62,790 bases of DNA from Raillietiella orientalis (GCA_036172245.1 JAYWIR010000114.1:62001-124790), one strand, 5' to 3'. Shown: positions 27,348 through 57,231, counted from the stretch's first letter. Made by a program: numbers and translations. Notes: generated by a model not told the origin, from the sequence alone.

Positions 27348-27363
27348 GAAAGGGGAGAGAGTC

Positions 27364-29298: not shown

Positions 29299-29304
29299 CA
29301 GGCA

Positions 29305-29447
29305 CTTGCTCTGTCAGGGCACGCAAAAATTGCCTCGGCAGTGGTTTTACGCACTGCCTTGGCGGGGTATTGGGTAAAGTTTTCAACTAGCAATAATCGC
29401 GGCTCAGTCGCCTTCCTCGCCTATTTTCCCCAGGTCTTACAAGGGGT
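29305..29447 (-). ncRNA. U4 snRNA-like module (B variant)
   Basis: GCCGCGATTATTGCTAGTTGAAAACTTTACCCAATACCCCGCC is near-identical to the conserved metazoan U4 core. Hairpin GGCAGTG..CACTGCC, Sm site AATTTTTG (29324-29331), terminal hairpin with one mismatch. Confidence 0.85.
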
Positions 29448-32400
29448 GGGGTAAATTTATTTTCTATAAAACATTCACGCTACAATCACATTCATACACT
29501 TTCACTTTTTCTCACTTATCACTGATCACTTGGGCACTTGTTCTTAAAGTTCACTTCTGGGCGTCTGAAAAGTCACTGCTCTACTTACCTTGGATCCGCT
29601 TGGGTTCGGAGACTTCCTTCTATCCTTCTCAGGATGTGTCGGTAGTTCCAAACTTGCACTCGTCCGCAGTTTCGGATGCCAATCTCCTTCTGGATCAACC
29701 CTTGCAGGATCTCCATCGGAGATATGGCGGTCCTCGTGGTCCTCATCTTCCACCACCGCACAAGGATGGCGGTGATGAAAAGGGCGATGGTCACTCTGAC
29801 CATGGGGTTGTAGCGTGAAACCGTTCCAGTTACCTGGAACACTCCTGCCAGAACGTCGATGGTCGAGGCGTTGTTCAGCCCGATGACCCTTTTCAGGGTT
29901 GTCCACTCGGATTGCAATGTGGGGCAGGTCAAGACATGTCTGTCTGAATCTAATCCACCACATGCTTTGCAGGTTTCTTCTTCTCGTCGTCCCGTGAAGA
30001 GCTTCATTCTCGTGCCGCATATAATCCCCCCATGATAAAACATGAGGAGATTGTCCTGTGTATCTGGTGGTAGGTCACTCCTCCATAGCACCGTACCGAT
30101 CGCTAGTGGGTTGAATCCACTGCTTGCGTATCGGTCGGCAGCATCTTGGAGGGCACTGTGGTCTTGTTCTTCCGTGATGATATCTTTCCTGTTCTTCTTC
30201 GTTACCCTGCACCACGCATGGTTAGGATGGCTTTTCCATACCTCGCGGGTCTTCAGGGTAACGGATCCACTCATCCTTTCCACGTGACGAAGTACCCGTG
30301 AATGATGAAGGTATCTTCGCCGTGTCCAGGATTCCAGTTCTCCGGATTTCCAGTTCTCTGGACCGCTGGCGTATCCAGCTCCTCGTGTCATCCTGTACGG
30401 GGAGCATCCAAGGGATAACCAGGATGGATTCCTCCTGCCAGAGTTCCTTGCTTCTCGGGATGATCTTGATTCCCTCGCTCTTGATCAATCTTTGTTTCCG
30501 CCTCCACGTTGGGTCGATGGTTGACCATTCGTCCACTCTGCCGACGAGCGCAGTCATCAGGCCCCTCGAGTTATTAATTAACAACGAGTATGCCCTATGC
30601 GCCGCGTACGGCCAGTCGTCCCAGTTGGAAGACATCTCCAGGATGTGTCGCACGTCCATGTTGTTCACGGCGTGTGCAGGCGACTTCATCCCGGTTCCTC
30701 CCTCCTCCCTCGGACGACAAAGTGGCTTCAGGCGTACTCTAGGACGGTATCCTCCCCACAGGGTCTTACTCTGCAGCTTTTCCACTTCTCGCTTGGTGTC
30801 TTTCGACATGTTGCTGAAGGCCGCTCCGAAAAGTACCTTCGGAAGGAGAACTCCATTCCAAAGGTTGGCCCTCTGCTTCATGTTGAAGTCCGAGCGCGTG
30901 TACTTCGCTCCTTCTTCAGATACTTTCCCCAGGATTTCCTTCCACAACAGTTGGGACGCGGATGCATCACCAATGTGGATACCTAGGTACTTGATCGTGT
31001 CCACCGTACGGAAACCTTCACTCACGAGTGTTGTGAGGTCCAGGATGCCGACGGGCAAGAGTTTGCTTTTCTGGACATTGATTTTAAGCCCCAATCCTTT
31101 CTCCATGAGCTCAACCACATGCAAGAAGCCTCGCTGATCTCTCTCCCCTTTGAGAAAGATGAGAAGATCGTCCGCGTAGGCGAGATGGGTGAGTCTCTGT
31201 TGGTCCACTTTGATTCCTCGGAGATACCCGGTTCTGTCGATGAACGACGAGAGGGCCTCCATGTAGATGACAAACAGCATCGGACTTAGCGCGTCGCCTT
31301 GACGGAATCCGCGTTCCATCCTGATGGCTGCTGTCGCTTCCCCATTGACGGTGATGCGGAATTCTTGGTCTTGTAGTACCATCCTGACGAAGTTGCTGAA
31401 GTATTCCGGGAGGCCCAGTCTTCCTAGAATCTTCAGCAGCATCCCATGGTCTACCGTGTCGAAGGCTTTCTCCATGTCAGTGAAGCTCAGCACCAAGTTC
31501 TCGCCTGTGTATCGGCTGAGTCCTATGGTGCCTTGTGCACACTTGACATTGTCCGACATGTGACGACCGGGCACCGCGCATGTCTGGATTGGAGATATAA
31601 GCCGCGGCATGACCTTGCCTAAGCGGTTGGCCCAGATCTTCGCCAACCACTTGGCATCGGAGTTCAGGATCGAGATTGGCCTTCATTGAGTGACCTGCGT
31701 GAGGTCACCGCCTTTCGGCAACAATCTCATCCGACTCTTGCTGAAGGACTTTGGTATTCTTCCTTCTTCTTTGATGCATAGCGTCAGCTGGAGGAACAGT
31801 CGCCGGTAGGCATGCAGATACCTCTGATAGTGGGAGATTGGAATACTATCAGGGCCTGCCGCCACATCCTTGCGAAGTTACTCGAACGCAGCTTTCACTT
31901 CTTCATCGGAGATATCTTCTTCCAGCATCTTCTTGCTCTTCTCGTCAATCCGGTTTTCCAGATGTTTCAGGAATCCTCGTTGATAGGTCTCGTCCGGTTG
32001 TTTCCTACGGAAGTGTTCTGCATAATGCCTGTGGAAGGCTTCTGCGATGTCTTCCGTCTTGCTCTTCGTCTGGCCTGCGTACTGGATGCTGAAGATATCT
32101 GTTGCCAGATTCTTCTTCTCCAGTACGCCAACTTCACCCTTGATGCTGTTGAAGACGTACCGGCTCTGATACTGTTGCCAGTACTTGGAGAGCGAGCGAT
32201 CTTGGATGTTGAGCTCGCGGTACGCGTCCTGCCTCAGTCTCTTGTCTCCAAACTGCATGTTGCAGAACAAATGGATGCGGTGCTTGAGGCTGTCCCAATC
32301 GGCGACCCTGCTGATGGTTGTAGTTTGCAGGATCACCTCCATCAGATCTTGATGATGGGGATGGGTCTCGAACCATTAAGGCATGGTGAGAATTGCCTCC

Positions 32401-34979
32401 CTCGTTGCCTTGCTTCGTCGAGGGTTTTCCGTCCGCAAGGTGAACCTCATCAACGGATGATCGGACACAGAGTGGGGAGTGTCTCGAAAACCGAGGACTC
32501 GGTTCCCAATGTCGGCACTGTAGAGGACGTGGTCGAGCGGCTTGTGGCTCGCAGTCAGCCACTGAAGTCCGAACTCGTCGGAAAGCCGCCGATACGCCTC
32601 CCTTCCTCTGACGTTCCGGGAATAGATGACTTCATCCAGGATGTTGAAGTCCCCAACGATGATGACGATGTCCTTCGCCTGCACTTTCTGGCGGAGGGCT
32701 TCATGAAGCACCTCCGCCCACTGGTGCTTTAGGTGGTGCGACCCGTAAACGTTCACCAGGAAGAGGTGGACGTTCGCGGACCAGGACAATCGTGAGACCA
32801 GAATTCTTCCAGGGACGGGACAGAAGACTTCCAGGATGGTGGCGGCAAGGCGGTTCTTGATTGCCGTTGCCACCTCCATGGTGTACCTCTGTCCCACGCT
32901 GGTGAACAGCTGGACGTTCATTCGTCTCTCCAATTCCAGGCTGATCTGCTGCCCCATCTCGTGGGTTTCCTGCAGGCAAACGATGTCGAAATGCCTGATC
33001 TTATGGGCTATTCTTCGTCTTCGCACCTGATCTTGCATTCCATTAACGTTCCAGGAGGCGATGGTCAGTCTCCCGGCTGTCGACAAGGATCAGGCCATAA
33101 AAGGTGGTATTAGTTTTTGGCCTTCCGCAGCTTCTTCTGGCGGGGAGACCTTTCTCTCCTTACCGCCGTCGAAGCTGGCTTCTCACTCCCGGCATCGCTC
33201 TCTGTGCCGGTGTGGTCTGTTGTATCGTTGTCTTGTTCGTTGGAGCGCTCTGGCTTGGCGACTGTTTTGCGCGGAAGGGTCTCCAGGGAGACCTTGGCGC
33301 AGTAGTTCCCCTTTACAATGCAGAGCTTGTTCTCCAGCCTGCCGCGCTCTTCCGGATCTATGAGGGCGTTGATTCCCTCCTGTGTTTCACCAATGCGTGA
33401 CAGGAGCTTCGCCTGCTGCACTTGGTTCACCTCCGTCTGTACCTCCTCCGCCAGCTTCACCACCTCCTCGGTGAGCTGCGCCGCCTCTTGCGAAGCCGGG
33501 GTAGCTTCGGTGATTTCCATCACCTCAGCTTCCGGCACTCCCTTCTGCGCAACAACCTCCTGCTGTTGCTCCACTACCTCGCCAACCGCCTGCTCGCCAA
33601 CCGCCTGTTCGCCACCCTGCTGCATCTCCTCGCCTACCTGCTTCTCGGCCTGTGCAGAGGAGGAGGATTCTGGCTCCCTCACGAGCCTCCTCCTCTTGCC
33701 GCCCTTCCCCACCTTAGTAAAGCCGTCCTCAGAAACAGGAGCGGCCTCCTTCGCCTTCCTCTGCTTCAGTGCTCTCTGAGGCTTGATCACCTCTTCGAGC
33801 ACTCGCGCCCTGACCGGTGAATGGATCCTCATCGTCCGGTAATTGGCAAACTCGGGACAGCACCATTTTGCGTGCCCTGGGGCCTTGCAAATTGAGCATA
33901 CCTCCGGCATGCTGCAATCACGGACTTGGTGGCCTTGCTTCCCACAGCGGAAGCATTTGGAACTTGGGCAGACGCCCTGTTTGTGTCCGAAGGATTTGCA
34001 ACCGTTGCAGAAAGCGGGTTGCGCCCTGTACCGCACAGAGACTCCCTGGTCATCCCCCTCGAAATGTATGGTCCCTGGAATCTGGGCATCCTATAACAGC
34101 TTTATCTTCACCGTCGCTTTTCCCGAAAAGATCTTCCCCGAGATGTTATGGAAGTTGCTGTCCAGTACCTCGCCGTACTGCGACACGCGTTTCCATACCG
34201 CCTTCTGTGTGATAAACGGCCCTAGCCCGCTCAGAAAAACGGTGGTGTACGGCATTTCGCCGACTCCACTCACCATTTTGCCCTGGATGTTGATTCCTTT
34301 TTCGATGAACTCCGCCAGGAGTTCATCGCACTCTGTGAAGATCGTGAACCCGAATGGCCCGGGCACGATCGCCTGCAACTTATCAACGTCTACCTGTTGC
34401 TTGTACAGCGCCAGGTAGACTTCCCGAATGTTATGCATTCGGATTAAACCGGTCTTCAACGTGACCGTCTTGACGTTTGGGCCCAACTTAACTATGGGCT
34501 CGTCAACTTCTTTGATCGGCCCGTACTCGGGCTTTCCGAATTTTCTCTACGGCTGGGTTGTTGCCGTCCCAGCCGCCACCGCCGCATAGGAAAACGTTGC
34601 CGCCGCCGGCGGCCGCCCCACGGTCGCAGCCGCCGCGCAAGATGGCGTCGCGTCATTAGCAATGGTTGGGCCTACGAGCCCTGCCGTTGCTAGGGGCGCT
34701 TCCGCCGTCGCCGCCGCCTTCGCAACCACCAACGTGGCCTGCCTTGCCTCCACCGCCGGTGTGGCGCCAGAAAAACACGATTGCCCAACCTCCATGGGCT
34801 GAGGCTTCTCCGTGGTTCCCATCCACCGCTGCTCTTGCATCTTGACGGGGTGCTGCTGCACCGCCGCCGGGGAGGGTCGCGACTCCTCCACCTTGGACTC
34901 CCTCTGGATGCTGCTGCTCCTGCTGCAGTCGCTGTGGGACGTACTGAGTAGCGCACTTACTGTTTTTTTTAACTATTCA
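29305..34979 (-). mobile_element. Array unit E3: full-length family B element including U4-like tail
   Basis: ORF1 ~34960-33110 (stops at 34547, 34091). ORF2 33098-29585 (stop at codon 3, also 32376, 31878, 31683). YADD intact. Confidence 0.95.
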
Positions 34980-35125
34980 CTTGCCCTCTCGGGGCACGCA
35001 AAAATTGCCGCGGCAGTGGTTTTACGCACTGCCTTGGCGGGGTATTGGGTAAAGTTTTGAACTAGCAATAATCGCGGCTCAGTCGCCTTCCTCGCCTACG
35101 ATTTTCTCCAAGTCCCACAAGGGGT
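34980..35125 (-). ncRNA. U4 snRNA-like module (A variant)
   Basis: Full 5' stem-loop ATCGT-A-GGC-GAG-GA-AG-GCGA-CT-GA-GCC-GCGAT, stem I TGCTAGT, Sm site, terminal TGCCC-CGAGA-GGGCA. Confidence 0.85.
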
Positions 35126-38100
35126 GGGGTAAATTTATTTTCTATAAAAATACAATTTTTGCATTCACACTCACATTCACTCTATCTTTACTCTTTGTCT
35201 CTCACTTTGAAGTCCTGGGGGGTTCACTAGAGTTCTGCTTTTACCTCAGGGTGGATTTCCATCTGGATGGTCCCGGGCGTCGTCCTCGATCCTCTTCAGG
35301 ATGAATCTGTACGTCCAGGCTTGGATGCGTCCACAATTCCTGATGCCGATCTCCTTCTTGATGAGTCCTTTCAGGATCTCCATCGAGGTTGCGGCTCTGC
35401 TGGCTCTTCTCATCTTCCACCACCGCACAAGTATGGCGGTGATGAAGAGGGCAATGGTCGTCCTCACCATGGGATTGTAACAGGGAACATTACCATTTCC
35501 CTGAAACATCCCGGCGAGGATCTCCATCGAGTTGTTCAGCAACAACGCGTAGGCCCTGTGCGCCGCATACGGCCAGTCATCCCAGTGAGTGGCTATGTCC
35601 AGGATGTGTCGCGTGTCCATGATTTCCATGGAATGTGCAGGCGACTTCATCCCGGAACCGCCTTCTTCCCTGGGACGACACAGAGGTTTGAGACGGACTC
35701 TTGGGCGATAATGGCCCCACAATGTTTTCCTCTGCAGCTTTTCTACTTCTCTTGTGGTTTCTTTATTCATTCGTGCGAAGGCCGCCCCGAAGAGTATCTT
35801 TGGTAGAAGTACTCCGTTCCACAGGTTGGCTCTTCGCTTCATGTTAAGGTCCACTCGAGTGTACTTCGCTGCTTCGTTGGCCGTTTTCCCCAGGATTTCC
35901 GTCCACAGCAGTTTCGACGCAGAGTCGTCGCCGATGTAGAGTCCCAGGTACTTAGCCGTGTCCACCGTACGGAATCCACTCCCCGTTAGAGTGGAGAGGT
36001 TCAGGATTCCGACGGGCAAAAGCTGGCTCTTTTGGGCATTGATTTTCAATCCCAGTCCCTGTTCCATGAGGTCGACCACATCCAGGAACGCTCCTTGATT
36101 CCTCTCTCCCTTGCTGAAGAAGAGGAGATCATCTGCGTATGCCAGATGGGTCAGGTGCTGACCATCAATGGAAATCCCTGATAGACGACCGCTTCTCTCG
36201 ATGTAAGAAGACAGCGCCTCCATGTATATGACGAACAGCATTTGACTTAGCGAGTCGCCCTGCCGGACTCCTCGTTCCATCCTAATTGCTGCCGTCTCTT
36301 GGCCGTTGATTTTGATACGGCAGTACTGGTTTTGGAGTACCGCCCTCACGAAGTTGCTGAAGTGTTCCGGAAGCCCAAGCTTCTCCAGAACATTCAGCAG
36401 CATCCCGTGGTCGATGGAGTCGAAGGCCTTCTCCATGTCGGTGAACACCAGTACCAGGTTCTCGCCGACGTATCGGCTGAGACCTACGATGGCCTGGGCA
36501 GAATTGACATTGTCAGACATGTATCGTCCTGGGACTGCACACGTCTGGACCGGAGAGATCAGCCTCGACATGACCCTGCCTAAGCGGTTGGACCAGATCT
36601 TCGCCAACCACTTGGCATCTCAGTTCAGGATCGAGATAGGCCTCCATTGATCGATCTGCGTGAGATCGCCTCCTTTTGGCAGCAATCTCATCCTGCTCTC
36701 GTAGAAGGATTCCGGAAGTCGTCCTTCTTCTCGGATGCAGAGTGTCAACTGGTGGAACAAACGCAGGTAGGCGTGCAGCTACCGCTGATAGTGCGAGATG
36801 GGTACACTATCAGGGCCTGCTGCCACATCCTTGCGAAGCTGCCCAAACGCAGTCTTCACTTCTTCCTCGGAGAACTCCTCCTCCAGTCTATTTCTTTGGA
36901 GGTCGTCCGTCCTCTTCTCGAGGTAACCCAAGAAGGCTTGCTGACTCGAGCGGCAGAGATCTTGTCGTCAGAAGTGTCTCGCGTAATGCCTGTGAAAGGC
37001 TTCCGCGATATCCTCCAACGTGTGTCGCTCTTGGCCGTCGCACTGGATGCAGAAGATATCTGTCGCCAGATTCCTCTTTTCCAGCACGCCGACCTCCCCT
37101 TTCATGTTCTGGAAGACGTACCGACTCTCGTATTGATCGAAGTACTTCGATAGGGAGCGATCTTGGATGTTCAGCTCCCGTTACGCTTCCTGCCTCATAC
37201 GCTTACAAAAATACTGCATATTGCAGAACAGATGGATCCTGTGCTTCAACCTGTCCCAGTCGGCGACTCTGTGGATGGTGGTTTCACGCAGAATCGCCTC
37301 GATGACCTCCTGGTGACAGAAAAGCGTTTCGAACCAGGCGGGCATGCAGATGAGCGCCGCCCTAATGGCCTTTTCCCTACGGGGATTTTCAGTGCGGAGT
37401 GTAAACCGTACCAATGGGTGATCGGACAACAGATGTGGAATGTCACGAAAACCCTGGATGCGGTTGTCTATCTCCGCACTGTGGAGGACGTGATCGATCG
37501 GCTTGTGGCTAGCTGTTCGCCAAAAAAGTCCGAACTCGTCGGACAGCCGCCGATACGCCGCTCTTCCCCTTGCATCCTGAGAATAGTTGATTTCCTGAAG
37601 GATGTTGAAATCCCCAGCGACGATGACTAGGTCCTTCGGTGCCACTCGTTTGCGGAGTTCTTCCTGCAGTTTCTCCGCGCACCGATGCTTGATCTTGTGT
37701 GGTCCGTAGACGTTCACCAGGAAGAGGTGAACGTTACTGGACCAGGACAGTCGCACGCCGATTACTCTGCCAGGTACCGGACAGAAGGTTTCCAAAATGG
37801 TGTGGGCGAGCCCGTTCTTGATGAGGATCGCCACCCCCATGGTCTTCTTCTGTCCCTCGCTGGCGAACAGTTGTCCGTCGAATCGGCGTTCCATCTCCAG
37901 GGCGTTCTGCTGCCCGAGACGGTGGATTTCTTGTAGGCACACCACATCCTGTCTTGCGATGGTCCGCATGACACTTTTTCTCTTTCCCTGGTCCGTCATT
38001 CCATTCACATTCCAGGAGGCGATGTTAATCCTCCTGGCACTGGACAGCGACGAGGCCATGAAAGGGGAGAGAGTCCTACTTGTTCTTGCGCGCCTTCCTT

Positions 38101-40009: not shown

Positions 40010-40155
40010 CTTGCCCTCTCGGGGCACGCAAAAATTGCCGCGGCAGTGGTTTTACGCACTGCCTTGGCGGGGTATTGGGTAAAGTTTTCAACTAGCAATA
40101 ATCGCGGCTCAGTCGCCTTCCTCGCCTACGATTTTCCCCAAGTCCCACAGGGGGT
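40010..40155 (-). ncRNA. U4 snRNA-like module (A variant, best preserved)
   Basis: Same elements as 34980-35125, with intact GTTGAAAACTTTACCCAATACCCCGCC. Confidence 0.88.
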
Positions 40156-43100: not shown

Positions 43101-43809
43101 TGGCCTTCTCCCTACGGGGATTTTCAGTGCGGAGTGTAAACCGTACCAATGGGTGATCGGACAACAGATGTGGAATGTCACGAAAACCCTGGATGCGGTT
43201 GTCTATCTCCGCACTGTGGAGGACGTGATCGATCGGCTTGTGGCTAGCTGTTCGCCACAAAAGTCCGAACTCGTCGGACAGCCGCCGATACGCTGCTCTT
43301 ACCCTTGCATCCTGAGAATACTTGATTTCGTCAAGGATGTTGAAATCCCCTGCGACGATGACTATGTCCTTCGGTGCCACTCGTTTGCGGAGTTCTTCTT
43401 GCAGTTTCTCCGCGCACCGATGCTTGATCTTGTGCGGTCCGTAGACGTTCACCAGGAAGAGGTGAACGTTACTGGAACAGGACAGTCGCACGCCAATTAC
43501 TCTGCGAGGTACCGGACAGAAGGTTTCCAAAATGGTGTGGGCGAGCTCGTTCTTGATGAGGATCGCCACCCCCATGGTCTTCTTCTGTCCCTCGCTGGCG
43601 AACAGTTGTCCGTCGAATCGGCGTTCCATCTCCAGGGCGTTGTGTTGCCCGAGACGGTGGATTTCTTGGAGGCACACCACATTAAATTTTGCGATGGTCC
43701 GCATGATGATCTTTCTCTTTCCCTGGTCCGTCAGTCCATTCACATTCCAGGAGGCGATGTTAATCCTCCTGGCACTGGACAGCGACGAGGCCATGAAAAG
43801 GGGGGAGTC

Positions 43810-45717: not shown

Positions 45718-45735
45718 ACTAATCTTCGGCAGGCA

Positions 45736-45878
45736 CTTGCCCTGTCAGGGCACACAAAAATTGCCTCGGCAGTGGTTTTACGCACTGCCTTGGCGGGGTA
45801 TTGGGTAAAGTTTTCAACTAGCAATAATCGCGGCTCAGTCGCCTTCCTCGCCTATTTTCCCCAGGTCCCACAAGGGGT
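45736..45878 (-). ncRNA. U4 snRNA-like module (B variant)
   Basis: U4 core, Sm site, terminal TGCCCT-GAC-AGGGCA. 3-nt deletion in the 5' stem-loop base. Confidence 0.85.
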
Positions 45879-46015
45879 GAAGTAAATTTATTTTCTATAA
45901 AACATTCCCGCTACAATCACATTCATACACTTTCACTTTTCCTCACTTGTCACCGGTCACTTTGGCACTTGTGCTTAAAGTTCACTTCTGGGCGTCTGAA
46001 AAGTCACTGCTTTAC

Positions 46016-49000
46016 TTACCTTGGATCCGCTTGGGTTCGGAGACTTCCTTCTATCCTTCTCAGGATGTGTCGGTAGTTCCAAACTTGAACTCGTACGCAG
46101 TTTCGGATGCCAATCTCCTTCTGGATCAACCCTTGCAGGATCTCCATCGGAGATATGGCAGTCCTCGTGGACCTCATCTTCCACCACCGCACAAGGATGG
46201 CGGTGATGAAAAGGGCGATGGTCACTCTGACCATGGGTTTTAGCGTGGAACTGTTCCAGTTCCCTGGAACATTCCTGCCAGAACGTCCATGGTCGAGGCG
46301 TTGTTCAGCCCGATGACCCTTTTCAGGGTTGTCCACTCGGATTGCAATGTGGGGCAGGTCAAGACGTTTCTACCTGAATCCAATCCACCACATGCTTTGC
46401 AGGTTTCTTCTTCTCGTCGTCCCGTGAAGATCTTCATTCTCGTGCCGCACAGGATCCCCCCATGATAAAACATGAGGAGATTGTCCTGTGTATCCGGTGG
46501 TAGGTCACTCCTCCATAGCACCGTACCGATCGCTAGTGGATTGAATCCACTGCTTGCGTATCGGTCGGCAGCATCTTGGAGGGCTCTGTGGTCTTGTTCT
46601 TCCCTGATGATGTCCTTCCTGTTCTTCTTCGTTACCCTGGACCTCGCATGGTTAGGATGGCTTTTCCATACCTCGCGGGTCTTCAGGGTAACGGATCCAC
46701 TCATCCTTTCCACGTGACGAAGTACCCGTGAATGATGAAGGTATCTTCGCCGTGTCCAGGATTCCAATTCTCCGAAGGTAACTCTGGACCGCTGGCGTAT
46801 CCAGCTCCTCGTGTCATCCTGTACGGGGAGCATCCAAGGGATAACCAGGATGGATTCCTCCTGCCAGAGTTCCTTGCTTCTCGGGATGATCTTGATTCCC
46901 TCGCTCTTGATCAATCTTTGTTTCCGCCTCCACGTTGGGTCGATGGTTGAACATTCGTCCACTCTGCCGACGAGCGGAGTCATCAGGCCCCTCGAGTTAT
47001 TAATTAACAACGAGTATGCCCTATGCGCCGCGTACGGCCAGTCGTCCCAGTTGGAAGACATCTCCAGGATGTGTCGCACGTCCATGTTGTTCACGGCGTG
47101 TGCAGGCGACTTCATCCCGGTTCCTCCCTCCTCCCTCGGACGACAAAGTGGCTTCAGGCGTACTCTCGGACGGTATCCTCCCCACAGGGTCTTCCTCTGT
47201 AGCTTTTCCACTTCTCGCTTGGTGTCTTTCGACATGTTGCTGAAGGCCGCTCCGAAAAGTACCTTCGGAAGGAGAACTCCATTCCAAAGGTTGGCCCTCT
47301 GCTTCATGTTGAAGTCCGAGCGCGTGTACTTCGCTCCTTCTTCAGATACTTTCCCCAGGATTTCCTTCCACAACAGTTGGGACGCGGATGCATCACCAAT
47401 GTGGATACCTAGGTACTTGATCGTGTCCACCGTACGGAAACCTTCACTCACGAGTGTTGTGAGGTCCAGGATGCCGACGGGCAAGAGTTTGCTTTTCTGG
47501 GCATTGATTTTAAGCCCCAATCCTTTCTCCATGAGCTCAACCACATGCAAGAAGCCTCGCTGATCTCTCTCCCCTTTGAGAAAGAAGAGAAGGTCGTTCG
47601 CGTAGGCGAGATGGGTGAGTCTCTGTTGGTCAACTTTGATTCCTCGGAGATACCCGGTTCTGTCGATGAACGAAGAGAGGGCCTCGATGTAGATGACAAA
47701 CAGCATCGGACTTAGCGCGTCGCCCTGACGGACTCCGCGTTCCATCCTGATGGCTGCTGTCGCTTCCCCATTGACGGTGATGCGGAATTCTTGGTCTTCT
47801 AGTACCATCCTGACGAAGTTGCTGAAGTATTCCGGGAGGCCCAGTCTTCCTAGAATCTTCAGCAGCATCCCATGGTCTACCGTGTCGAAGGCTTTCTCCA
47901 TGTCAGTGAAGCTCAGCACCAAGTTCTCGCCTGTGTATCGGCTGAGTCCTATGGTGGCTTGAGCACACTTGACATTGTCCGACATGTGACGACCGGGCAC
48001 CGCACATGTCTGGACCGGAGATATAAGCCGCGGCATGACCTTGCCTAAGCGGTTGGCCCAAATCTTCGCCAACCACTTGGCATCGGAGTTCAAGATCGAG
48101 ATTGGCCTCCATTGAGTGACCTGCGTGAGGTCACCGCCTTTCGGCAACAATCTCATCCGACTCTTGCTGAAGGACTTTGGTATTCTTCCTTCTTCTTTGA
48201 TGCATAGCGTCAGCTGGAGGAACAGTCGCCGGTAGGCATGCAGATACCTCTGATAGTGGGAGATTGGAATACTATCAGGGCCTGCCGTCACATCCTTGCG
48301 ATGTTCCTCGAACCCAGCTTTCACTTCTTCATCGGAGATATGTTCTTCCAGCATCTTCTTGCTCTTTACGTCAATCCGGTTTTCCAGATGTTTCAGGAAT
48401 CCTCGTTGATAGATCTCGTCCGGTTGTTTCCTACGGAAGTGTTCTGCATAATGCCTGTAGAAGGCTTCTGCGATGTCTTCCGTCTTGCTCTTCATCTGGC
48501 CTGCGTACTGGATGCTGAAGATATCTGTTGCCAGATTCTTCTTCTCCAGTACGCCAACTTCACCATTGATGCTGTTGAAGGCGAACCGGCTCTGGTACTG
48601 TTGCCAGTACTTGGAGAGCGAGCGATCTTGAATGTTGAGCTCGCGGTACGCATCCTGCCTCAGTCTCTTGACTCCAAACTGCATGTTGCAGAACAAATGG
48701 ATGCCGTGCTTGAGGCTGTCCGAATCGGCGACCCTGCTGATGGTTGTAGTTTGCAGGATCTCCTCCATCAGATCTTGATGATGGGGATGGGTCTCGAACC
48801 ATTGGGGCATGGTGAGAATTGCTTCCCTCGTTGCCTTGCTTCGTAGAGGGTTTTCCGTCCGCAAGGTGAACCTCATCAACGGATGATCGGACACAGAGTG
48901 AGGAGTGTCTCGAAAACCGAGGACTCGGTTCCCAATGTCGGCGCTGTAGAGGACGTGGTCGATCGGCTTGTGGCTCGCAGTCAGCCACTGGAGTCCGAAC

Positions 49001-49524
49001 TCGTCGGAAAGCCGCCGATACGCCTCCCTTCCTCTGACGTCTCGGGAATAGATGACTTCATCCAGGAGGTTGAAGTCCCCAACGATGATGACGATGTCCT
49101 TCGCCTGCACTTTTTGGCGGAGGGCTTCATGAAGCACTTCCGCGCACTGGTGCTTTAGGTGGTGCGGCCCGTAAACGTTCACCAGGAAGAGGTGACCGTT
49201 CGCGGACCAGGACAATCGTGAGACGAGAATTCTTCCAGGGACGGGACAGAAGACTTCCAGGATGGTGGCGGCAAGGTGCTTCTTGATTGCCGTTGCCACC
49301 CCCATGGTGTGCCTCTGTCCCACGCTGGTGAACAGTTGGACGTTCATTCGTCTCTCCAATTCCAGGCTGATCTGCTGCCCCATCTCGTGGGTTTCCCGCA
49401 GGCAAACGATGTCGAAGTGCCTGATCTTGTGGGCTATTCTTCGTCTTCGCACTGAATCTTGCATTCCATTAACGTTCCAGGAGGCGATGGTCAGTCTCCC
49501 GGCTGTCGACAAGGATGAGGCCAT
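46016..49524 (-). CDS. E6 ORF2 pol (APE endonuclease, reverse transcriptase, C-terminal Zn finger), nearly intact, ~1170 aa if repaired
   Basis: 1094-aa open frame 46240-49524, with the last codons shifted at ~46240. Catalytic YADD is altered to YAND and LQE to LRE, so this copy is probably inactive. Confidence 0.9.
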
Positions 49525-51387
49525 AAAGGGGTGGTGTTAATTTTTGGCCTTCCTCAGCTTCTTTAGGCGGAGAGACCTTTCTCTCCTTACCGCCGTCGAA
49601 GCTGGCTTCTCACTCCCGGCATCGCTCTCTGTGCCGGTGTGGTCTGTCGTATCATTGTCGTGTTCGCTGGAGCGCTCGAGCTTGGCGACTGTTTTGCGCG
49701 GAAGGTTCTCCAGGGAGACCTTGGCGCAGTAGTTCGCCTTTACGATGCAGAGCTTGTTCTCCAGCCTGCCGCGTTCTTCTGGTTCTATGAGGGCGTTGAT
49801 TCCCTCCTGTGTTTCACCAATGCGTGACAGGATCTTCGCCTGCTGCACTTGGTTCACCTCCGTCTGTACCTCCTCCGCCAGCTTCACCACCTCCTCGGTG
49901 AGCTGCGCCGCCTATTGCGAAGCCGGGGTAGCTTCGGTGATTTCCATCACTTCAGCTTCCGGCACTCCCTTCTGCGCAACAACCTCCTGCTGTTGCTCCA
50001 CTACCTCGCCAACCGCCTGCTCGCCAACCTGCTGCATCTCCTCGCCTACCTGCTTCTCGGCCTGTTCAGAGGAGGAGGATTCGGGCTCCCTCACGGGCAT
50101 CCTCCTCTTTAGCCATTCCCCACCGTCGTAAAGCCGTCCTCAGAAACGGGAGCGGCCTCCTTCGCCTTCCTCTGCTTCAGTGCTATCTGAGGCTTGATCA
50201 CCTCTTCGAGCACTCGCGCCCTGTCCGGTGAATTGCCCCTCATCGTCCGGTAATTGGCAAACTCGGAACAGCACCATTTTGCGTGCCCTGGGGCCTTGCA
50301 AAATGAGCAAACCTCCGGCATGCTGCAATCCCGGACTTGGTGGCCTTGCTTCCCACAGCGGAAGCATTTCAATTTGGGACAGACACGCTGCCTGTGGCCA
50401 ACTGATTTGCAACCGTTGCAGAAAACGGGTTGCGCCCTGTACCTCACAGAGACTCCTTGATCGTCACCCTCGAAATGGATGGTTCCAGGAATCTGAGCAT
50501 CCTCCAACAGCTTCATCCTTACCGTCGCTTCTCCCGAAAAGATCTTCCCCGAAATGTTGTGGAAATTGCTGTCCAGTACCTCGCCGTACTGCGACAGGCG
50601 TTTCCAGACCGCCTTCTGTGTGATGAACGGCCCTAGCCCGCTCAGAAAAACGGTGGTGTACGGCATTTCGCCGACTCCACACACCATTTTACCCTGGATG
50701 TTGATCCCTTTTTCGATGAACTCCTGGCGGAGTTCATCGCACTCTGTGTAGATCGTGAACCCGAATGGCCCGAACACGATCGCCTGCAACTTATCAAAGT
50801 CCACCTGTTGCTTGTACAGCGCCAGGTAGAGTTCCCGAATGTTATGCATTCGGATTAAACCGGTCTTGAACGTGACCGTCTTGACGTTTGGGCCCAAATT
50901 GACTATGGGCTCATCAACGTCCGTGATCGCCCCGGACTCGGGCTTTCCAAATTTTCTCTGCGGCTGGGTTGTTGCCGTCCCAGCCTCCACCGCCGCATAG
51001 GAAAAAGTCGCCGCCGCCGGCGGCCGCCCCACGGTCGCAGCCGCCTCGCAAGATGCCGTCGCGTGATTAGCAACGGTTGGGCCTAGGAGCCCTGCCGTTG
51101 CTAGGGACGCTTCCGCCGTCGCCGTCGTCTTCGCAGCCACCCCCGTTGCCTGCCTTGTCTCCACCACCGGTGTGGCGCCAGAAACACACGATTGCCCTAC
51201 CTCCATAGGTTGAGGCTTCTCCGTGGTCCCCATCCACCGCTGCTCTTGCATCTTGACGGGGTGCTGCTGCACCGCCGCCTGGGAGGGTCGCGACTCCTCC
51301 ACCTTGGACTCCCTCTGGCTGCTGCTGCTGCTGCTGCAGTCGCTGTGGGACGTCCTGAGTACCGTACTCACTGTTTTTCACTATTCA

Positions 51388-51530
51388 CTTGCCCTGTCAG
51401 GGCACGCAAAAATTGCCTCGGCAGTGGTTTTACGCACTGCCTTGGCGGGGTATTGGGTAAAGTTTTCAACTAGCAATAATCGCGGCTCAGTCGCCTTCCT
51501 CGCCTATTTTCCCCAGGTCCCACAAGGGGT
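51388..51530 (-). ncRNA. U4 snRNA-like module (B variant)
   Basis: U4 core, Sm site AATTTTTG, terminal TGCCCT-GAC-AGGGCA. Confidence 0.85.
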
Positions 51531-54500
51531 GGGGTAAATTTATTTTCTGTAAAACATTCACACTACAATCACATTCATACACTTCAACTTTTCCTCATTT
51601 GTCACTGGTCACTTTGGCACTTGTGCTTAAAGTTCACTTCTGGGCGTCTGAAAAGTCACTGCTCTACTTACCTTGGATCCGCTTGGGTTCGGAGACTTCC
51701 TTCTATCCTTCTCAGGATGTGTCGGTAGTTCCAAACTTGCACTCGTCCGCAGTTTCGGATGCCAATCTCCTTCTGGATCAACCCTTGCAGGATCTCCATC
51801 GGAGATATGGCAGTCCTCGTGGTCCTCATCTTCCACCACCGCACAAGGATGGCGGTGATGAAAAGTGCGATGGTCACTCTGACCATGGGATTGTAGCGTG
51901 GAGCCGTTCCAGTTCCCTGGAACATTCCTGCCAGAACGTCCATGGTCGAGGCGTTGTTCAGCCCGATGACCCTTTTCAGGGTTGTCCACTCGGATTGCAA
52001 TGTGGGGCAGGTCAAGACGTGTCTACCTGAATCCAATCCACCACATGATTTGCAGGTTTCTTCTTCTCGTCGTCCCGTGAAGAGCTTCATTCTCGTGCCG
52101 CACAGGATCCCCCCATGATAGAACATGAGCAGATTGTCCTGTGTATCCGGTGGTAGGTCACTCCTCCATAGCACCGTACCGATCGCTAGGGGATTGAATC
52201 CACTGCTTGCGTATCGGGCGCCAGCATCTTGGAGGGCACTGTGGTATTGTTCTTCCCTGATGATGTCCTTCCTGTTCTTCTTCGTTACCCTGGACCACGC
52301 ATGGTTAGGATGGCTTTTCCATACCTCGCGGGTCTTCAGGGTAACGGATCAACTCATCCTTTCCACGTGACGAAGTACCCGTGAATGATGAAGGTATCTT
52401 CGCCGTGTCCAGGATTCCAATTCTCCGAAGGTAACTCTGGACCGCTGGCGTATCCAGCTCCTCGTGTCATCCTGTACGGGGAGCATTCAAGGGATAACCA
52501 GGATGGATTCCTCCTGCCAGAGTTCCTTGCTTCTCGGGATGATCTTGATTCCCTCGCTCTTGATCAGTCTTTGCTTCCACCTCCACGTTGGGTCGATGGT
52601 TGACCATTCGTCCACTCTGCCGACGACGCAGTCATCAGGCCCCTCGAGTTGTTAATTAACAACGAGTATGCCCCTATGCCGCGTACGTAGTCGATACAGT
52701 TGGAGAACATCTCCAGGATGTGTCGCACGTCCATGTTGTTCACGGCGTGTGCAGGCGACTTCATCCCGGTTCCTCCCTCCTCCCTCGGACGACAAAGTGG
52801 CTTCAGGCGTACTCTCGGACGGTATCCTCCCCACAGGGTCTTCCTCTGCAGCTTTTCCACTTCTCGCTTGGTGTCTTTCGACATGTTGCTGAAGGCCGCT
52901 CCGAAAAGTACCTTCGGAAGGAGAACTCCATTCCAAAGGTTGGCCCTCTGCTTCATGTTGAAGTCCGAGCGCGTGTACTTCGCTCCTTCTTCAGATACTT
53001 TCCCCAGGATTTCCTTTCACAACAGTTGGGATGCGGATGCATCACCAATGTGGATACCTAGGTACTTGATCGTGTCCACCGTACGGAAACCTTCACTCAC
53101 GAGTGTTGTGAGGTCCAGGATGCCGACGGGCAAGAGTTTGCTTTTCTGGGCATTGATTTTAAGCCCCAATCCTTTCTCCATGAGCTCAACCACATGCAAG
53201 AAGCCTCGCTGATCTCTCTCCCCTATGAGAAAGAAGAGAAGGTCGTCCGCGTAGGCGAGATGGGTGAGTCTCTGTTGGTCCACTTTGATTCCTCGGAGAT
53301 ACCCGGTTCTGTCGATGAACGACGAGAGGGCCTCCATGTAGATGACAAACAGCATCGGACTTAGCGCGTCGCCCTGACGGACTCCGCGTTCCATCCTGAT
53401 GGCTGCTGTCGCTTCCCCATTGACGGTGATGCGGAATTCTTGGTCTTGTAGTACCATCCTGACGAAGTTGCTGAAGTATTCCGGGAGTAGCTGATCTTCC
53501 TAGAATCTTCAGCAGCATCCCATGGTCTACCGTGTGGAAACTTTCTCCATGTCGGTGACTTCAGCACCAAGTTCTCGCCTGTGTATCGGCTGAGTCCTAT
53601 GGTGGCTTGAGCACACTTGACATTGTCCGACATGTGACGACCGGGCACCGCACATGTCTGGACCGGAGATATAAGCCGCGGCATGACCTTGCCTAAGCGG
53701 TTGGCCCAAATCTTCGCCAACCACTTGGCATCGGAGTTCAAGATCGAGATTGGCCTCCATTGAGTGACCTGCGTGAGGTCACCGCCTTTCGGCAACAATC
53801 TCATCCGACTCTTGCTGAAGGACTTTGGTATTCTTCCTTCTTCTTTGATGCATAGCGTCAGCTGGAGGAACAGTCGCCGGTAGGCATGCAGATACCTCTG
53901 ATAGTGGGAGATTGGAATACTATCAGGGCCTGCCGCCACATCCTTGCGAAGTTCCTCGAACGCAGCTTTCACTTCTTCATCGGAGATATCTTCTTCCAGC
54001 ATCTTCTTGCTCTTTTCATCAATCCGGTTTTCCAGATGTTTCAGGAATCCTCGTTGATAGATCTCGTCCGGTTGTTTTCTGCGGAAGTGTTCTGCATAAT
54101 GCCTGAAGAAGGCTTCTGCGATGTCTTCCGTCTTGCTCTTCATCTGGCCTGCGTACTGGATGCTGAAGATATCTGTTGCCAGATTCTTCTTCTCCAGTAC
54201 GCCAACTTCACCCTTGATGCTGTTGAAGACGTACCGGCTCTGGTACTGTTGCCAGTACTTGGAGAACGAGCGATCTTGGATGTTGAGCTCGCGGTACGCC
54301 TCCTGCCTCAGTCTCTTGTCTCCAAACTGCATGTTGCAGAACAAATGGATGCGGTGCTTGATGCTGTCCCAATCGGCAACCCTGCTGATGGTTGTAGTTT
54401 GCAGGATCACCTCCATCAGATCTTGATGATGGGGATGGGTCTCGAACCATTGGGGCATGGTGAGAATTGCCTGCCTCGTTGCCTTGCTTCGTCGAGGGTT

Positions 54501-55662
54501 TTCCGTCCGCAAGGTGAACCTCATCAACGGATGATCGGACACAGAGTGGGGAGTGTCTCGAAAACCGAGGACTTGGTTCCCAATGTCGGCGCTGTAGAGG
54601 ACGTGGTCGATCGGCTTGTGGCTCGCAGTCAGCCACTGGAGTCCGAACTCGTCGGAAAGCCGCCGATACGCCTCCCTTCCTCTGACGTCCCGGGAATAGA
54701 TGATTTGATCCAGGAGGTTGAAGTCCCCAACGATGATGACGATGTCCTTCGCCTGCACTTTCTTGCGGAGGGCGTCATGAAGCACCTCCGCGCACTGGTG
54801 CTTTAGGTGGTGCGTCCGTAGACGTTCACCGGGAAGAGGTGAACGTTACACGTTCGCGGACCCGGACAATCGTGAGACGAGAATTCTTCCAGGGACGGGA
54901 CGAAGACTTCCAGGATGGTGGCGGCAAGGTGGTTCTTGATTGCTGTTACCCCCATGGTGTACCTCTGTCCCACGCTGATGAACAGTTGGACGTTCATTCA
55001 TCTCTCCAATTCAGGCTGATCTGCTGCCCCATCTCATGGGTTTCCTGGCGAACGAAACGATGTCGAAGTGCCTGATCTTGTGGGCTTTTCTTCGTCTTCG
55101 CACTGGATCTTGCAATCCAATTAACGTTCCAGGAGGCGATGGTCAGTCTCCCGGCTGTCGACAAGGATGAGGCCATGAAAGGGGGTGTTAATTTTTTGGC
55201 CTTCCTCAGCACAGTGTCGACTGGCGGGGGAGACCTTTCTCTGCTTACCGCCGTCCGAAGCTGGCTTCTCACTCCCGGCATCGCTCTCGTGCCGGTGTGG
55301 TCTGTCGTATCGTTGTCGTGTTCGCTGGAGCGCTCGAGCTTGGCAACTGTTTTGCGCGGAAGGTTCTCCAGAGAGACCTTGGCGCAGTAGTTCGCCTTTA
55401 CGATGTAGAGCTTGTTCTCCAGCCTGCCGCGTTCTTCCGGGTCTATGAGGGCGTTGATTCCCTCTTGTGTTTCACCAATGCGTGACAGGAGCTTCGCCTG
55501 CTGCACTTGGTTCACCTCCGTCTGTACTTCCTCCGCCAGCTTCACCACCTCCTCGGTGAGCTGCGCCGCCTCTTGCGAAGCCGGGGTAGCTTCGGTGATT
55601 TCCATCACCTCAGCTTCCGGCACTCCCTTCTGCGCAACAACCTCCTGCTGTTGCTCCACTAC

Positions 55663-55737
55663 CTCGCCAACCGCCTGCTCGCCAACCGCCTGCTCGCCAA
55701 CCGCCTGCTCGCCAACCGCCTGCTCGCCAACCGGCTG
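55663..55737. repeat. 15-bp in-frame minisatellite in family B ORF1 (VGEQA)n
   Basis: CTCGCCAACCGCCTG x4 plus one variant copy. Fewer copies in E3, E6 and E8. Confidence 0.9.
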
Positions 55738-57088
55738 CATCTCCTCGCCTACTTGCTTCTCGGCCTGTGCAGAGGAGGAGGATTCTGGCTCCCTCACGAG
55801 CATCCTCCTCTTGCCGCCCTTCCCCACCGTCGTAAAGCCGTCCTCAGAAACGGGAGCGGCCTCCTTCGCCTTCCTCTGCTTCAGTGCTCTCTGAGGCTTG
55901 ATCGCCTCTTCGAGCACTCGCGCCCTGACCGGTGACTGGCCCCTCATCGTCCGGTAATTGGCAAACTCGGGGCAGCACCATTTTGCGTGCCCTGGGGCCT
56001 TGCAAAATGAGCATACCTCCGGCATGCTGCAATCACGGACTTGGTGGCCTTGCTTCCCACAGCGGACGCATTTCGATCTGGGACAGACACGCTGCCTGTG
56101 GCCAAATGATTTGCAACCGTTGCAGAAAACGGGTTGCGCCCTGTATCTCACAGAGATTCCCTGATCGTCACCCTCGAAATGGATGGTTCCAGGAATCTGG
56201 GCATCCTCCAACAGCTTCATCCTTACCGTCGCTTCTCCCTAAAAGATCTTTTCCGAAATGTTGTGGAAATTGCTGTCCAGTACCTCGCCGTACTGTGACA
56301 GGCGTTTTTAAACCGCCTTCTGTGTAATTAACGGCCCTAGCCCGCTCAGAAAAACGGTGGTGTACGGCATTTCGCCAACTCCACACACCATTTTGCCCTG
56401 GATGTTGATTCCGGTTTCAATCAACGACTGCCGGAGTTCTTCACAATCTGTGTAGATCGTGAACCCGAATGGCCCGGGCGCGATCGCCTGAAGCTTATCA
56501 AAGTCTACCTGTTGCTTGTACAGTGCCAGGTAGACTTTTCGAATGTTATGCATTCGGATTAAACCGGTCCTGAACGTGAGTGTCTTCACGTTTGGGCCCA
56601 ACTTGACGATGGGCTCGTCAACGTCCCTAATGGGCCCGGACTCGGGCTTCCCAAATTTTCTCTGCGGCTGGGTTGTTGCCGTCCCAGCCGCCACCGCTGC
56701 ATAAGAAAATGTTGCCGCCGCCGGCGGCCGCCCCACGGTCGCAGCCGCCGCCGCGCAAGATGGCGTCGCGTCATTAGCAACGGTTGGGCCTAGGAGCCTT
56801 GCCGTTGCTAGGGGCGCTTCCGCCGTCGCCGCCGCCTTCGCAGCCACCACCGTGGCCTGCCTTGCCTCCACCACCGGTGTGGCGCCAGAAACACACGATT
56901 GCCCTACCTCCATGGGCTGAGGCTTCTCCGTGGTTCCCATCCACCGCTGTTCTTGCATCTTGACGGGGTGCTGCTGCACCGCCGCCGGGGAGGGTCGCGA
57001 CTCCTCCACCTTGGACTCCCTCTGGCTGCTGCTGCTGCAGTTGCTGTGGGACGTCCTTGGTTGCGCACTCACTGTTTTTCACTATTCA

Positions 57089-57231
57089 CTTGCCCTGCGA
57101 GGGCACACAAAAATTGCCTCGGCAGTGATGTTACTCACTGCCTTGGCGGGGTATTGGGTAAAGTTTTCAACTAGCAATAATCGCGGCTCAGTCGCCTTCC
57201 TCGCCTATTTTCCCCAGGTCCCACAAGGGGT
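57089..57231 (-). ncRNA. U4 snRNA-like module (B variant with altered loops)
   Basis: GGCAGTGA-GTAACA-TCACTGCC and TGCCCT-CGC-AGGGCA. Stems and Sm site preserved. Confidence 0.85.

Follow-up and report, generated by a model that had tools for sequence, protein, structure and literature searches.

In the window, that is, the whole stretch of 62,790 nt analyzed here (Raillietiella orientalis, GCA_036172245.1 JAYWIR010000114.1:62001-124790), two L1-like LINE families (A and B) form one head-to-tail array of seven units on the minus strand, in which each unit is followed by a complete or partial module derived from the U4 snRNA. The sequence variants of this module are passed on with the element that precedes it, and the module itself is strongly conserved between the two families. 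We consider it rather probable that U4 is a co-mobilised 3' tail of these LINEs and that the joining point of a new copy is exactly the 3' end of a U4 sequence. It should be noted that all evidence comes from a single array in a single window and that the copies are partly non-independent (E1/E2 and E4/E5 are sister copies), so that independent events are fewer than junctions. Since the LINEs and the U4 modules all lie on the minus strand, 'after', 'upstream' and 'downstream' are read along that strand.

The order of the units from E1 to E7 is B B B A A B A, with the families interleaved, and six full-length Rfam U4 matches together with two partial modules separate them (Table 1). E1 and E2 are adjacent sisters (3' UTR 99.7% and body 97.3% identical; 96.4% over 5737 columns for the unit, blastn), and E4 and E5 are adjacent as well. 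The internal deletion of E5 is visible in the blastn comparison, in which E5 joins E4 positions 1-4479 directly to 5183-5733. E1 has an intact ORF1 frame of 618 aa and a broken ORF2, with Pfam matches to zf-CCHC, Exo_endo_phos and RVT_1. A truncated B-like fragment (E8) sits downstream of the partial tail of E7. No copy with both ORFs intact was found among the units in the window.

Table 1. LINE units and U4 modules of the array, listed in the direction of the minus strand (RF00015 is the Rfam U4 model)
Feature	Position	Strand	RF00015 score (bits)	Rfam U4 match	Remarks
Partial module, mixed variants	62756..62790	-			last 35 nt of U4; upstream element outside the window
E1, family B LINE unit	57256..62755	-			5' end immediately after GCAAGTG of the partial module at 62756
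B-type tail of E1	57087..57255	-	63.0	57093-57230	leader, U4 and AAGTG; model 1-138
E2, family B LINE unit	51555..57086	-			blastn reference unit; ORFs broken
B-type tail of E2	51386..51554	-	60.5	51392-51529	
E3, family B LINE unit	45903..51385	-			ORF2 46240-49536 intact, 1098 aa; ORF1 truncated, 422 aa
B-type tail of E3	45734..45902	-	61.3	45740-45877	informative junction: B upstream, A downstream
E4, family A LINE unit	40180..45733	-			ORF1 frame intact, 640 aa
A-type tail of E4	40008..40179	-	75.6	40013-40152	
E5, family A LINE unit	35150..40007	-			internal deletion of ~703 nt
A-type tail of E5	34978..35149	-	68.9	34983-35124	informative junction: A upstream, B downstream
E6, family B LINE unit	29472..34977	-			93.9% identity to E2 over 5737 columns (blastn)
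B-type tail of E6	29303..29471	-	53.5	29309-29442	informative junction: B upstream, A downstream
E7, older family A LINE unit	23729..29302	-			88.2% identity to E4 over positions 1-5627 (blastn)
Partial A-type tail of E7	23670..23728	-			leader and ~first 39 nt of U4; abuts E8 directly
E8, B-like LINE fragment, 5'- and 3'-truncated	20471..23617	-			84-88% identity to B positions 302-3555 (blastn)

The coding regions identify the type of element. In the intact ORF2 of E3, Pfam searches located Exo_endo_phos at residues 18-218 (6.6e-15) and RVT_1 at residues 465-713 (1.6e-30), and this order of an APE endonuclease followed by an RT within ORF2 is that of an APE-type non-LTR retrotransposon. ORF1, located upstream of ORF2 and 618-640 aa in frame length, contains zf-CCHC (E3 1.9e-07, E1 8.3e-05 and E4 0.0014, the last two scoring below or near the curated cut-off). 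Among solved structures, E3 ORF2 scored best against human LINE-1 ORF2p (2e-48), R2 giving 3e-25. Homologues often carry zf-RVT. The best protein relatives were only 22-32% identical (71 matches near length and 2 shorter), and a close LINE relative was not obtained by protein searches.

Both families are old. Their ORFs are ~74% identical at the nucleotide level, and their UTRs are not alignable, forced alignments giving 48-63%. For ORF2, dS ranged from 0.90 to 1.17 and dN/dS from 0.15 to 0.28, which shows that A and B have diverged as working elements under purifying selection. Within family B, two sub-lineages, (E1, E2) and (E3, E6), were split by 39 of 47 informative sites. Divergence along the B copies is patchy (mosaic), which suggests exchange between units.

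All six full modules matched the Rfam U4 model over positions 1-138 of 138, one per junction and in the sense orientation of the LINEs, with scores of 53.5-75.6 bits against a gathering score of 46. Each module is ~170 nt long and consists of an A/T-rich leader containing AATAAA, followed by a complete U4-derived sequence ending in ...GCAAGTG. The leader, ~27-30 nt 5' of the U4 start, is common to all modules, and AATAAA is conserved ~20 nt before U4; the leader may represent a TATA box or a poly(A) signal. Alignment to RF00015 revealed the 5' stem-loop, the central stem-loop, AAUUUUUG and the 3' stem-loop/hairpin; the lower 5' stem is 3 nt shorter in B-type modules. Homology between A and B starts ~27-30 nt before U4, so that the individual events did not each capture a free snRNA.

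The junctions between units are precise to the nucleotide. All seven full 5' ends start right after GCAAGTG, and all seven visible 3' UTR ends enter the same leader and U4, so that both families meet U4 at identical nucleotides at both ends (7/7 junctions with a visible 3' side). The sequence-only reading had described a switch to the downstream family right after the common GCAAGTG, and we observed it at each of the seven junctions with this end. The heptamer itself is not enriched (10 matches versus 9.47 expected); its position alone matters. At the seven junctions with a visible 3' side, neither poly(A) nor a spacer nor a second U4 unit was found, exactly one module lies between elements, and adjacent modules do not occur across ~40 kb. 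Among the units that follow a module, seven of eight are full length, without poly(A) or variable truncation. Independent copies share nucleotide-precise junctions with the U4 sequence, as snRNA-targeting LINEs do with their targets. No U4 split into flanking parts by an element was found, the full modules all covering the complete model.

The distribution of U4 variants shows which neighbor they follow. The motifs quoted in the sequence-only reading are present: modules after A elements (40008 and 34978) carry GACTTGG, AAAATCGTAGG, CCGCGGC and CCCCGAGAGGG, and those after B elements (57087, 51386, 45734 and 29303) carry GACCTGG, AAAATAGG, CCGAGGC and CCCT..CAG, the last being CCCTGACAG in three of the four and CCCTCGCAG at 57087. 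When the six full modules were aligned (172 columns, 23 variable), the upstream family fixed seven columns, equivalent to five events (four substitutions and one 3-nt indel), and the downstream family fixed none; the best alternative among all 25 non-singleton bipartitions fixed one event. The proposed co-segregation with the upstream element is borne out by these counts. The tails of E1 and E6 are B-type at 5/5 events, the tail of E3 is B-type at 5/5 despite the A element that follows, and that of E5 is A-type at 5/5 despite the B element that follows. With the partial tail at 23670-23728 counted, which the sequence-only reading had not listed, all four informative junctions track the upstream element, as do all seven junctions whose upstream element lies inside the window. 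The association spans the A sub-lineages (E4/E5 and E7, the latter 88% identical to E4) as well as the B sub-lineages (E1, E2) and (E3, E6), the diagnostic sites extend over ~125 nt of the module, and the sole leader site that splits 2:2 matches the split of the B sub-lineages.

Since variants follow the upstream element at 4/4 informative junctions, both a whole-module target-site duplication (TSD) and a 5' head are rejected, as had been claimed from the sequence alone. A module-long TSD was ruled out because the variants on the two sides of E4, E6 and E7 differ, and a 5' head agrees neither with the absence of events fixed by the downstream family nor with the shared leader that precedes U4. 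For E1, we also considered a hybrid of tail and long TSD, which was ruled out because the last 35 nt of its flanking modules differ at five positions. A short TSD, of up to 10 nt, may lie at the very end of U4.

The two partial modules and the tail of E1 deserve separate description. At 23670-23728, blastn-short over 59 nt found 93.2% identity with the A module against 91.5% with the B module; this tail has GACTTGG and the 3 nt missing from B, and is A-type at both sites covered. The module at 62756-62790, already regarded as mixed, does combine the B-type CGAGGC with the A-type CCCCGAGAGGG. The tail of E1 has five private changes, all in loops. It differs from the tail of E2 at 6 of 169 positions, all within the last 48 nt, while ~1 position differs in the adjacent 300 nt of 3' UTR. 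Because the differences are confined to the end of the tail and the 3' UTRs are nearly identical, the E1 tail shows some uncoupling of tail and body, for which gene conversion, template exchange or a target-derived part might be responsible.

With the leader included, A and B modules are 94.7-95.9% identical. Because this identity of ~95% is seen despite an ORF2 dS of ~1, the module is either constrained or renewed. Among the U4-part variable events, 2 of 17 fell in paired positions versus 33% expected (binomial 0.046), a weak argument for the tail reading; no covariation was found in the tail, since its base pairs never vary. Tails within a family differ by 2.4-5.9%, which resembles the 2.7-5.1% between B bodies, so that the tails appear to decay along with dead copies and not to be kept uniform as working genes are. 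The same differences of 2.4-5.9% between copies argue against the modules being working U4 genes.

These data can be combined as follows. A and B would be L1-superfamily LINEs with an APE endonuclease, whose retrotransposed RNA would lack poly(A) and end instead in the ~170-nt module with its AATAAA leader and complete U4 (...GCAAGTG). The module would be copied with the element in front of it, so that family-specific U4 mutations, for example the loss of 3 nt from the lower 5' stem in B-type modules, would travel along. The 5' end of a new copy would then be joined exactly to the 3' end of a U4 sequence, either by endonuclease-directed insertion behind a resident tail or by a jump of the RT, which would leave one element RNA at its 5' end and continue on another at the U4 3' end, and either route would generate head-to-tail arrays with exactly one U4 between units. 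Candidate roles of the tail include recognition by the RT, homing to U4 sequences and 3'-end formation via the Sm site and the terminal hairpin. The sequence-only reading had arrived at a similar interpretation, of which the exclusion of a TSD and a 5' head stands; an RNA that ends at the U4 3' end (GCAAGTG) and is joined to an existing 5' end is the best-supported reading, and it is here, as in the way the junction forms and the role of the tail, that we infer.

Several observations count against U4 as an inherited tail: the module at 62756 combines A and B states, the tail of E1 is partly uncoupled from its body, a module identity of 95% at an ORF dS of ~1 would be equally natural for a host or target sequence, AATAAA, if it served as a poly(A) signal, would terminate the RNA ahead of the tail, and both ORFs are intact in none of the copies in the window. 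A more specific form of the tail reading, which we regard as speculative and on the whole unlikely, is that the module is a working Sm-class snRNA unit replacing poly(A): an Sm core on AAUUUUUG and the terminal hairpin would let the machinery that matures snRNAs cut read-through RNA back to the precise ...GCAAGTG end, would stabilise the RNA and would bring the RNP back into the nucleus, with the same sequence also guiding the element to U4 3' ends. In a bolder form, the conserved leader and the end of the 3' UTR would act as a U4-type promoter, and the LINEs would spread expressible U4 genes or drive their downstream neighbor.

The co-segregation also fits a choice of target, the main alternative. 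In this scenario, which is possible and to us rather doubtful, a U4-derived tandem repeat or gene cluster with two unit types pre-existed, A and B, as sequence-specific LINEs, each insert just upstream of their own type, and the variant follows the element by target choice. Precedents exist in part: the available texts tie Mutsu subfamilies to different 5S variants by target sequence (PMC5340908), describe, for Phytophthora, arrays of U2 genes that host several Utopia families, the elements being preceded by intact U2 genes (PMC4640811), and annotate the 138-bp monomer of a frog tandem repeat family as U5/U4 snRNA-like (PMC12054243). The high identity of the modules would then require no selection on the LINE, and the mosaic module at 62756 and the divergent tail end of E1 would suit a recombining repeat family. 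On the other hand, each of seven junctions holds a single unit, no two units are adjacent in ~40 kb, and no U4 fragment was split by insertion, unlike in Mutsu, Keno and Utopia. A unit of 170 bp would leave a spacer of ~30 nt, too short for a normal snRNA promoter. The spread of the diagnostic sites over ~125 nt of the unit, and the leader site that follows the B sub-lineage split, also speak against target choice.

Growth of the array at the DNA level appears quite improbable. A LINE would have landed by a U4 gene or acquired U4 once by 3' read-through, with U4 as a passenger, and unequal crossing-over or segmental duplication would have done the rest, which suits the adjacent sisters E1/E2 and E4/E5, the exchange between units suggested by the mosaic B copies, and the lack of a copy with both ORFs intact. 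Duplication of a single unit cannot, however, yield families at an ORF2 dS of ~1, under purifying selection and with non-homologous UTRs, that share place and boundaries and are interleaved, and a passenger module should diverge between families about as much as synonymous sites do, yet it is 95% identical.

A template-switch chimera, in which the RT switches from the 5' end of LINE RNA to free U4 snRNA, as in U6/L1, and U4 belongs to the downstream element, is scarcely credible: a full-length sense snRNA directly 5' of a LINE is the known geometry of snRNA/L1 chimeras (in the available texts of bioRxiv 10.1101/2025.02.02.635956 and PMC4494074) and the junction coincides, to within a few nt, with the 3' end expected for mature U4, but none of the five family-fixed events follows the downstream element and all four informative junctions contradict it. 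Moreover, the shared block includes ~27-30 nt before U4 that would be missing from a free snRNA, and 7/8 units after a module are full length, without poly(A) or variable truncation.

We also searched for the module outside the window. Exact-pattern scans with a 31-nt module stretch returned 0 loci in metagenome_contigs, genome_contigs and viral_contigs, and a scan of metagenome_contigs based on the ORF2 protein gave 33 pattern matches, none of which was confirmed. Among sequencing runs, X1 matched the window (share 0.34, contigs), two same-study runs had nearly no shared words, and no RNA run was among those listed. When contigs of X1-X3 were aligned to 39800-51800, relatives at 90-99% identity and a few bridging contigs were obtained; these are contigs, from which RNA ends or absence cannot be read. 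One X1 contig (455 nt, depth 25.9) runs from an A-like 3' UTR into the module and stops exactly at 40008, the U4 3' end, which is a weak indication. Loose ends of X2/X3 contigs lie at 39942, 40186 and 51673. No joint of a U4 3' end to a leader is listed in the X1-X3 contigs, which is no evidence of absence. In the literature searched, no U4-linked LINE or other transposon was found.

Known 3' ends of LINEs are poly(A), short repeats or stem-loops recognised by the RT, and some LINEs live inside small RNA genes. In telomere- and microsatellite-specific LINEs of the R1 clade and the Tx1 group, the 3' tail repeats the target, and in L1 3' transduction read-through carries downstream sequence along. 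As with target-repeating tails, the tail proposed here would be the sequence where the next copy integrates; it differs from these tails and from L1 transductions in being a single complete structured snRNA of 145 nt rather than a short repeat or a random flank. Keno (U2) and Mutsu (5S), APE LINEs of the L1/Tx1 group, resemble the present elements in having APE, RT and a CCHC ORF1 (the nearest solved relative here being human L1 ORF2p) and in that independent copies, here of two families, share boundaries relative to a small RNA gene sequence. A LINE subtype is linked to a small-RNA variant in Mutsu as well (available text of PMC5340908). In contrast with Keno and Mutsu, the RNA here is U4 and unsplit, and a complete copy follows each element and carries its variants.

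Utopia in Phytophthora U2 arrays is similar in that several LINE families lie amid snRNA genes with intact genes upstream; its available description, in which the endonuclease is restriction-like, insertion occurs inside U2 and the downstream U2 starts at nt 39 (PMC4640811), differs from the APE-type elements here, which have a full-length downstream U4 with leader and no intergenic DNA. The available text of this 2015 paper gives only U2, U1 and U6 as snRNA targets (PMC4640811). The snRNA/L1 chimeras (U6/L1, more rarely U1-U5) share with our array a full-length sense snRNA joined end to end to a LINE, an arrangement suggesting that an RT linked two RNA ends. In these chimeras, the snRNA is added, in a non-heritable way, to the 5' side of a polyadenylated L1 that is flanked by TSDs and usually 5'-truncated, whereas here U4 is common to two old families, is passed on with the element that lies 5' of it and is found in place of poly(A).

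If the alternative of matched target variants were true, the array would still represent the first pair of LINEs that are specific for a U4 repeat and matched to its variants. The module has been kept ~twenty times more similar between the two families than synonymous sites. If U4 is indeed an inherited tail, an autonomous LINE with a complete snRNA as its heritable 3' end would solve in a new way three problems that all LINEs face, namely a defined RNA 3' end, recognition of the RNA together with its return to the nucleus, and a safe landing site. In that case, U4 would become one of the few snRNA genes known to be exploited by transposons, and the array would provide a natural case for studying array growth by end-to-end joining.

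From ~18 kb to the right end of the window, the minus strand carried a head-to-tail array of non-LTR retrotransposons. Searching the window by blastn with two reference units resolved two families, A and B (see table). The 1098-aa ORF2 of unit E3 (46240-49536) contained the Pfam domains Exo_endo_phos and RVT_1, and ORF1 a CCHC knuckle (Pfam). The closest solved protein to ORF2 was human LINE-1 ORF2p (2e-48; R2 proteins, ~1e-25), and the best relatives in a collection of 5.8 billion proteins, many of them with zf-RVT, were only 22-32% identical. Taken together, these results suggest that the array elements are APE-type LINEs of the L1 superfamily, with no near relative described in the collections searched. 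A and B showed ~74% identity across the ORFs, and their UTRs could not be aligned. Between families, dS was 0.90-1.17 for ORF2 (dN/dS 0.15-0.28) and ~2 for ORF1; A and B are taken to have diverged while they were working elements. No copy in the window had both ORFs intact. In the best-preserved copies, the two ORFs shared one frame with a single stop codon between them (E1, 60888-60893; E4, 43807-43812), and the first ATG of ORF2 lay 4-5 codons past that stop. The first 10 nt of A units (45724-45733, 39998-40007 and 29293-29302, minus strand) comprised an additional ~9-10 nt of unusual variability (CCT....AAG pattern) preceding AATAGTG, which is the very first sequence of B units; they may represent 5' end heterogeneity arising at integration.

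Positions of the LINE units, partial modules and ORF1 complement sites in the window
Feature	Position	Strand	Method or setting
E1, family B	57256-62755	-	blastn
E2, family B	51555-57086	-	blastn
E3, family B	45903-51385	-	blastn
E4, family A	40180-45733	-	blastn
E5, family A, deletion ~703 nt	35150-40007	-	blastn
E6, family B	29472-34977	-	blastn
E7, family A	23729-29302	-	blastn
Partial module, last 35 nt	62756-62790	-	window edge
Partial module, leader + ~39 nt of U4, after E7	23670-23728	-	abuts 5'-truncated B-like element
14-nt complement site	33866-33879	+	blastn-short
14-nt complement site	50277-50290	+	blastn-short
14-nt complement site	55981-55994	+	blastn-short
14-nt complement site	61647-61660	+	blastn-short

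Each pair of units was joined by one module, a leader plus U4-derived sequence. Six Rfam matches to U4 (RF00015) were found, all on the minus strand and covering model positions 1-138 of 138, with scores of 53.5-75.6 bits (gathering score 46). The 5' stem-loop, single-stranded middle, central stem-loop, AAUUUUUG and 3' hairpin of the model were all present; all proposed pairs (24 of 24) were retained across the six copies, with 1 of 132 cells unpaired, and no covariation was observed in the U4 pairs of these copies. B-type tails lacked 3 nt of the lower 5' stem. The U4 part had 17 variable events, of which 2 fell at paired positions, against an expected 33% (binomial 0.046), a weak hint that the variants might have arisen under selection for the fold. 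A and B units became homologous at TTTTAYAGAAAATAAATT..., which lies ~27-30 nt 5' of the U4 sequence, and remained so up to GCAAGTG (directions relative to the minus strand). As a sequence-only reading had described, the downstream family began with the very next nucleotide. No poly(A), spacer or second module unit occurred at any junction in the window. AATAAA was conserved ~20 nt before U4 in 7/7 leaders; it may serve in polyadenylation or as a promoter element, or have neither role. Within ORF1 of each of the four B units lay a 14-nt exact complement to the 3' hairpin region in that unit's B-type tail (blastn-short E 0.033), which could reflect chance or a long-range pairing site.

The same reading had proposed that U4 variants co-segregate with the upstream element, and this was borne out. 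Among 172 alignment columns of the six full modules, 23 were variable; seven of these, corresponding to five events (four substitutions and a 3-nt indel), were fixed by upstream family and none by downstream family, and the next-best of all 25 non-singleton splits gave one fixed event. All three junctions with differing upstream and downstream families (45734, 34978 and 29303) followed the upstream element, as did the partial tail of E7, which had been missed before, giving 4/4 informative junctions. The association spanned sub-lineages of A (E7 is 88% identical to E4) and of B, where (E1,E2) and (E3,E6) were separated at 39 of the 47 informative sites, including one in the leader. Because two pairs, E1/E2 and E4/E5, are sister copies, independent events are fewer than junctions. 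A module-long target-site duplication was excluded, as had been argued, because E4, E6 and E7 each carry differing variants on their two sides.

Between families, the modules were 94.7-95.9% identical, compared with 48-63% for the neighbouring 300 nt of UTR (forced alignments). Such identity despite the ORF dS values points to a module that is replenished from a shared source or else under strong constraint in lineages that are active. Within families, tails differed by 2.4-5.9%, similar to the bodies, which suggests that resident tails are decaying, without the uniformity maintained in working U4 genes.

We consider it reasonably likely that the leader and U4 module forms the 3' terminus that both LINE families inherit, and that each new unit is attached exactly at a U4 3' end. 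Attachment might proceed through site-specific insertion behind tails already in place, or through end-to-end template jumps from one element RNA to another. The shared leader speaks against free U4 snRNA being captured anew each time. The main rival, to which we give a distinctly smaller chance, is that a U4-derived repeat was there beforehand and each family targets a variant of its own, much as Mutsu subfamilies are tied to 5S variants via target sequence in the account of Locati et al. (PMC5340908). Such target choice would explain co-segregation and between-family conservation equally well, but fits poorly with exactly one unit per junction and with a 170-bp unit leaving no room for a spacer. 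DNA-level amplification with U4 as a passenger is improbable, since it leaves two interleaved old families with identical boundaries unexplained. A 5' head acquired by template switching is very improbable, since the shared leader and 4/4 informative junctions contradict it.

The coupling of tail and body was not complete. The tails of E1 and E2 (57087-57135 vs 51386-51434) showed 6 differences, all within the last 48 nt, whereas the adjoining 300 nt of 3' UTR were 99.7% identical; the E1 tail had five private changes, all in the central and 3' hairpin loops, plus one shared CpG-type change. Its end thus seems to have a history other than that of its body. The partial module at the right window edge, whose upstream element lies beyond the window, was indeed mixed, being a mosaic of A and B states. 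Together these two cases point to some exchange between modules or to a partly target-derived tail. A long target-site duplication for the E1 tail was ruled out, as the last 35 nt of the flanking modules differ at 5 positions.

Three public sequencing runs of one study were compared as contigs. In the first, 34% of sampled words were present (next to none in the other two), and its contigs were mostly 90-99% alike to 39800-51800. One contig of 455 nt ran from an A-like 3' UTR into the module and ended exactly at 40008, the U4 3' end; this fits a branch point there, though as weak evidence. The other two runs, otherwise almost without LINE sequence, held identical contigs that matched around modules and then became unrelated, at 39942, 40186 and 51673; these could derive from solo junctions, from transcripts or from a native locus. 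A 31-nt piece of the module had no exact match in the metagenome, prokaryote-genome and viral collections, and ORF2 had no confirmed match in the metagenome contigs.

Other elements were present in the window. A further LINE family, only distantly related, was represented by old fragments (102-2002, 4107-5471 and 6875-7240, plus strand; 23-32% amino acid identity to B ORF2) that were 64-71% alike, with no U4 match nearby. An inverted A-like ORF2 fragment (8387-10425, plus strand; 66% amino acid identity to B, 83% nucleotide identity to A) and the 5' part of a third, C-like family (18170-20395, minus strand) both lack 3' ends, and are hence mute on the U4 tail. They flank an AT-rich block (~10500-18170; GC 37-43% vs ~55% around) with only short ORFs (135 aa or less), two of which, when tested, had no Pfam match.

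As far as the text of the Utopia paper (PMC4640811) goes, snRNA-gene targeting was known only for Keno and Utopia (U2), Dada-U1 and Dada-U6, and Phytophthora arrays hold several Utopia families among U2 genes, with intact U2 upstream. A full-text literature search found no link of U4 to the target or tail of a non-LTR element; the supplementary figures of the Utopia paper may show how alike Utopia arrays are to the present one. As described in a 2025 preprint (10.1101/2025.02.02.635956) and in the text of Kojima 2015 (PMC4494074), snRNA/L1 chimeras do not propagate and have the snRNA on the 5' side of an L1 that is usually truncated. In PMC12054243 (Table 2), the 138-bp monomer of a frog satellite is annotated as U5/U4-like. 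On the basis of one array, the present elements would belong with target-linked or tailed LINEs.
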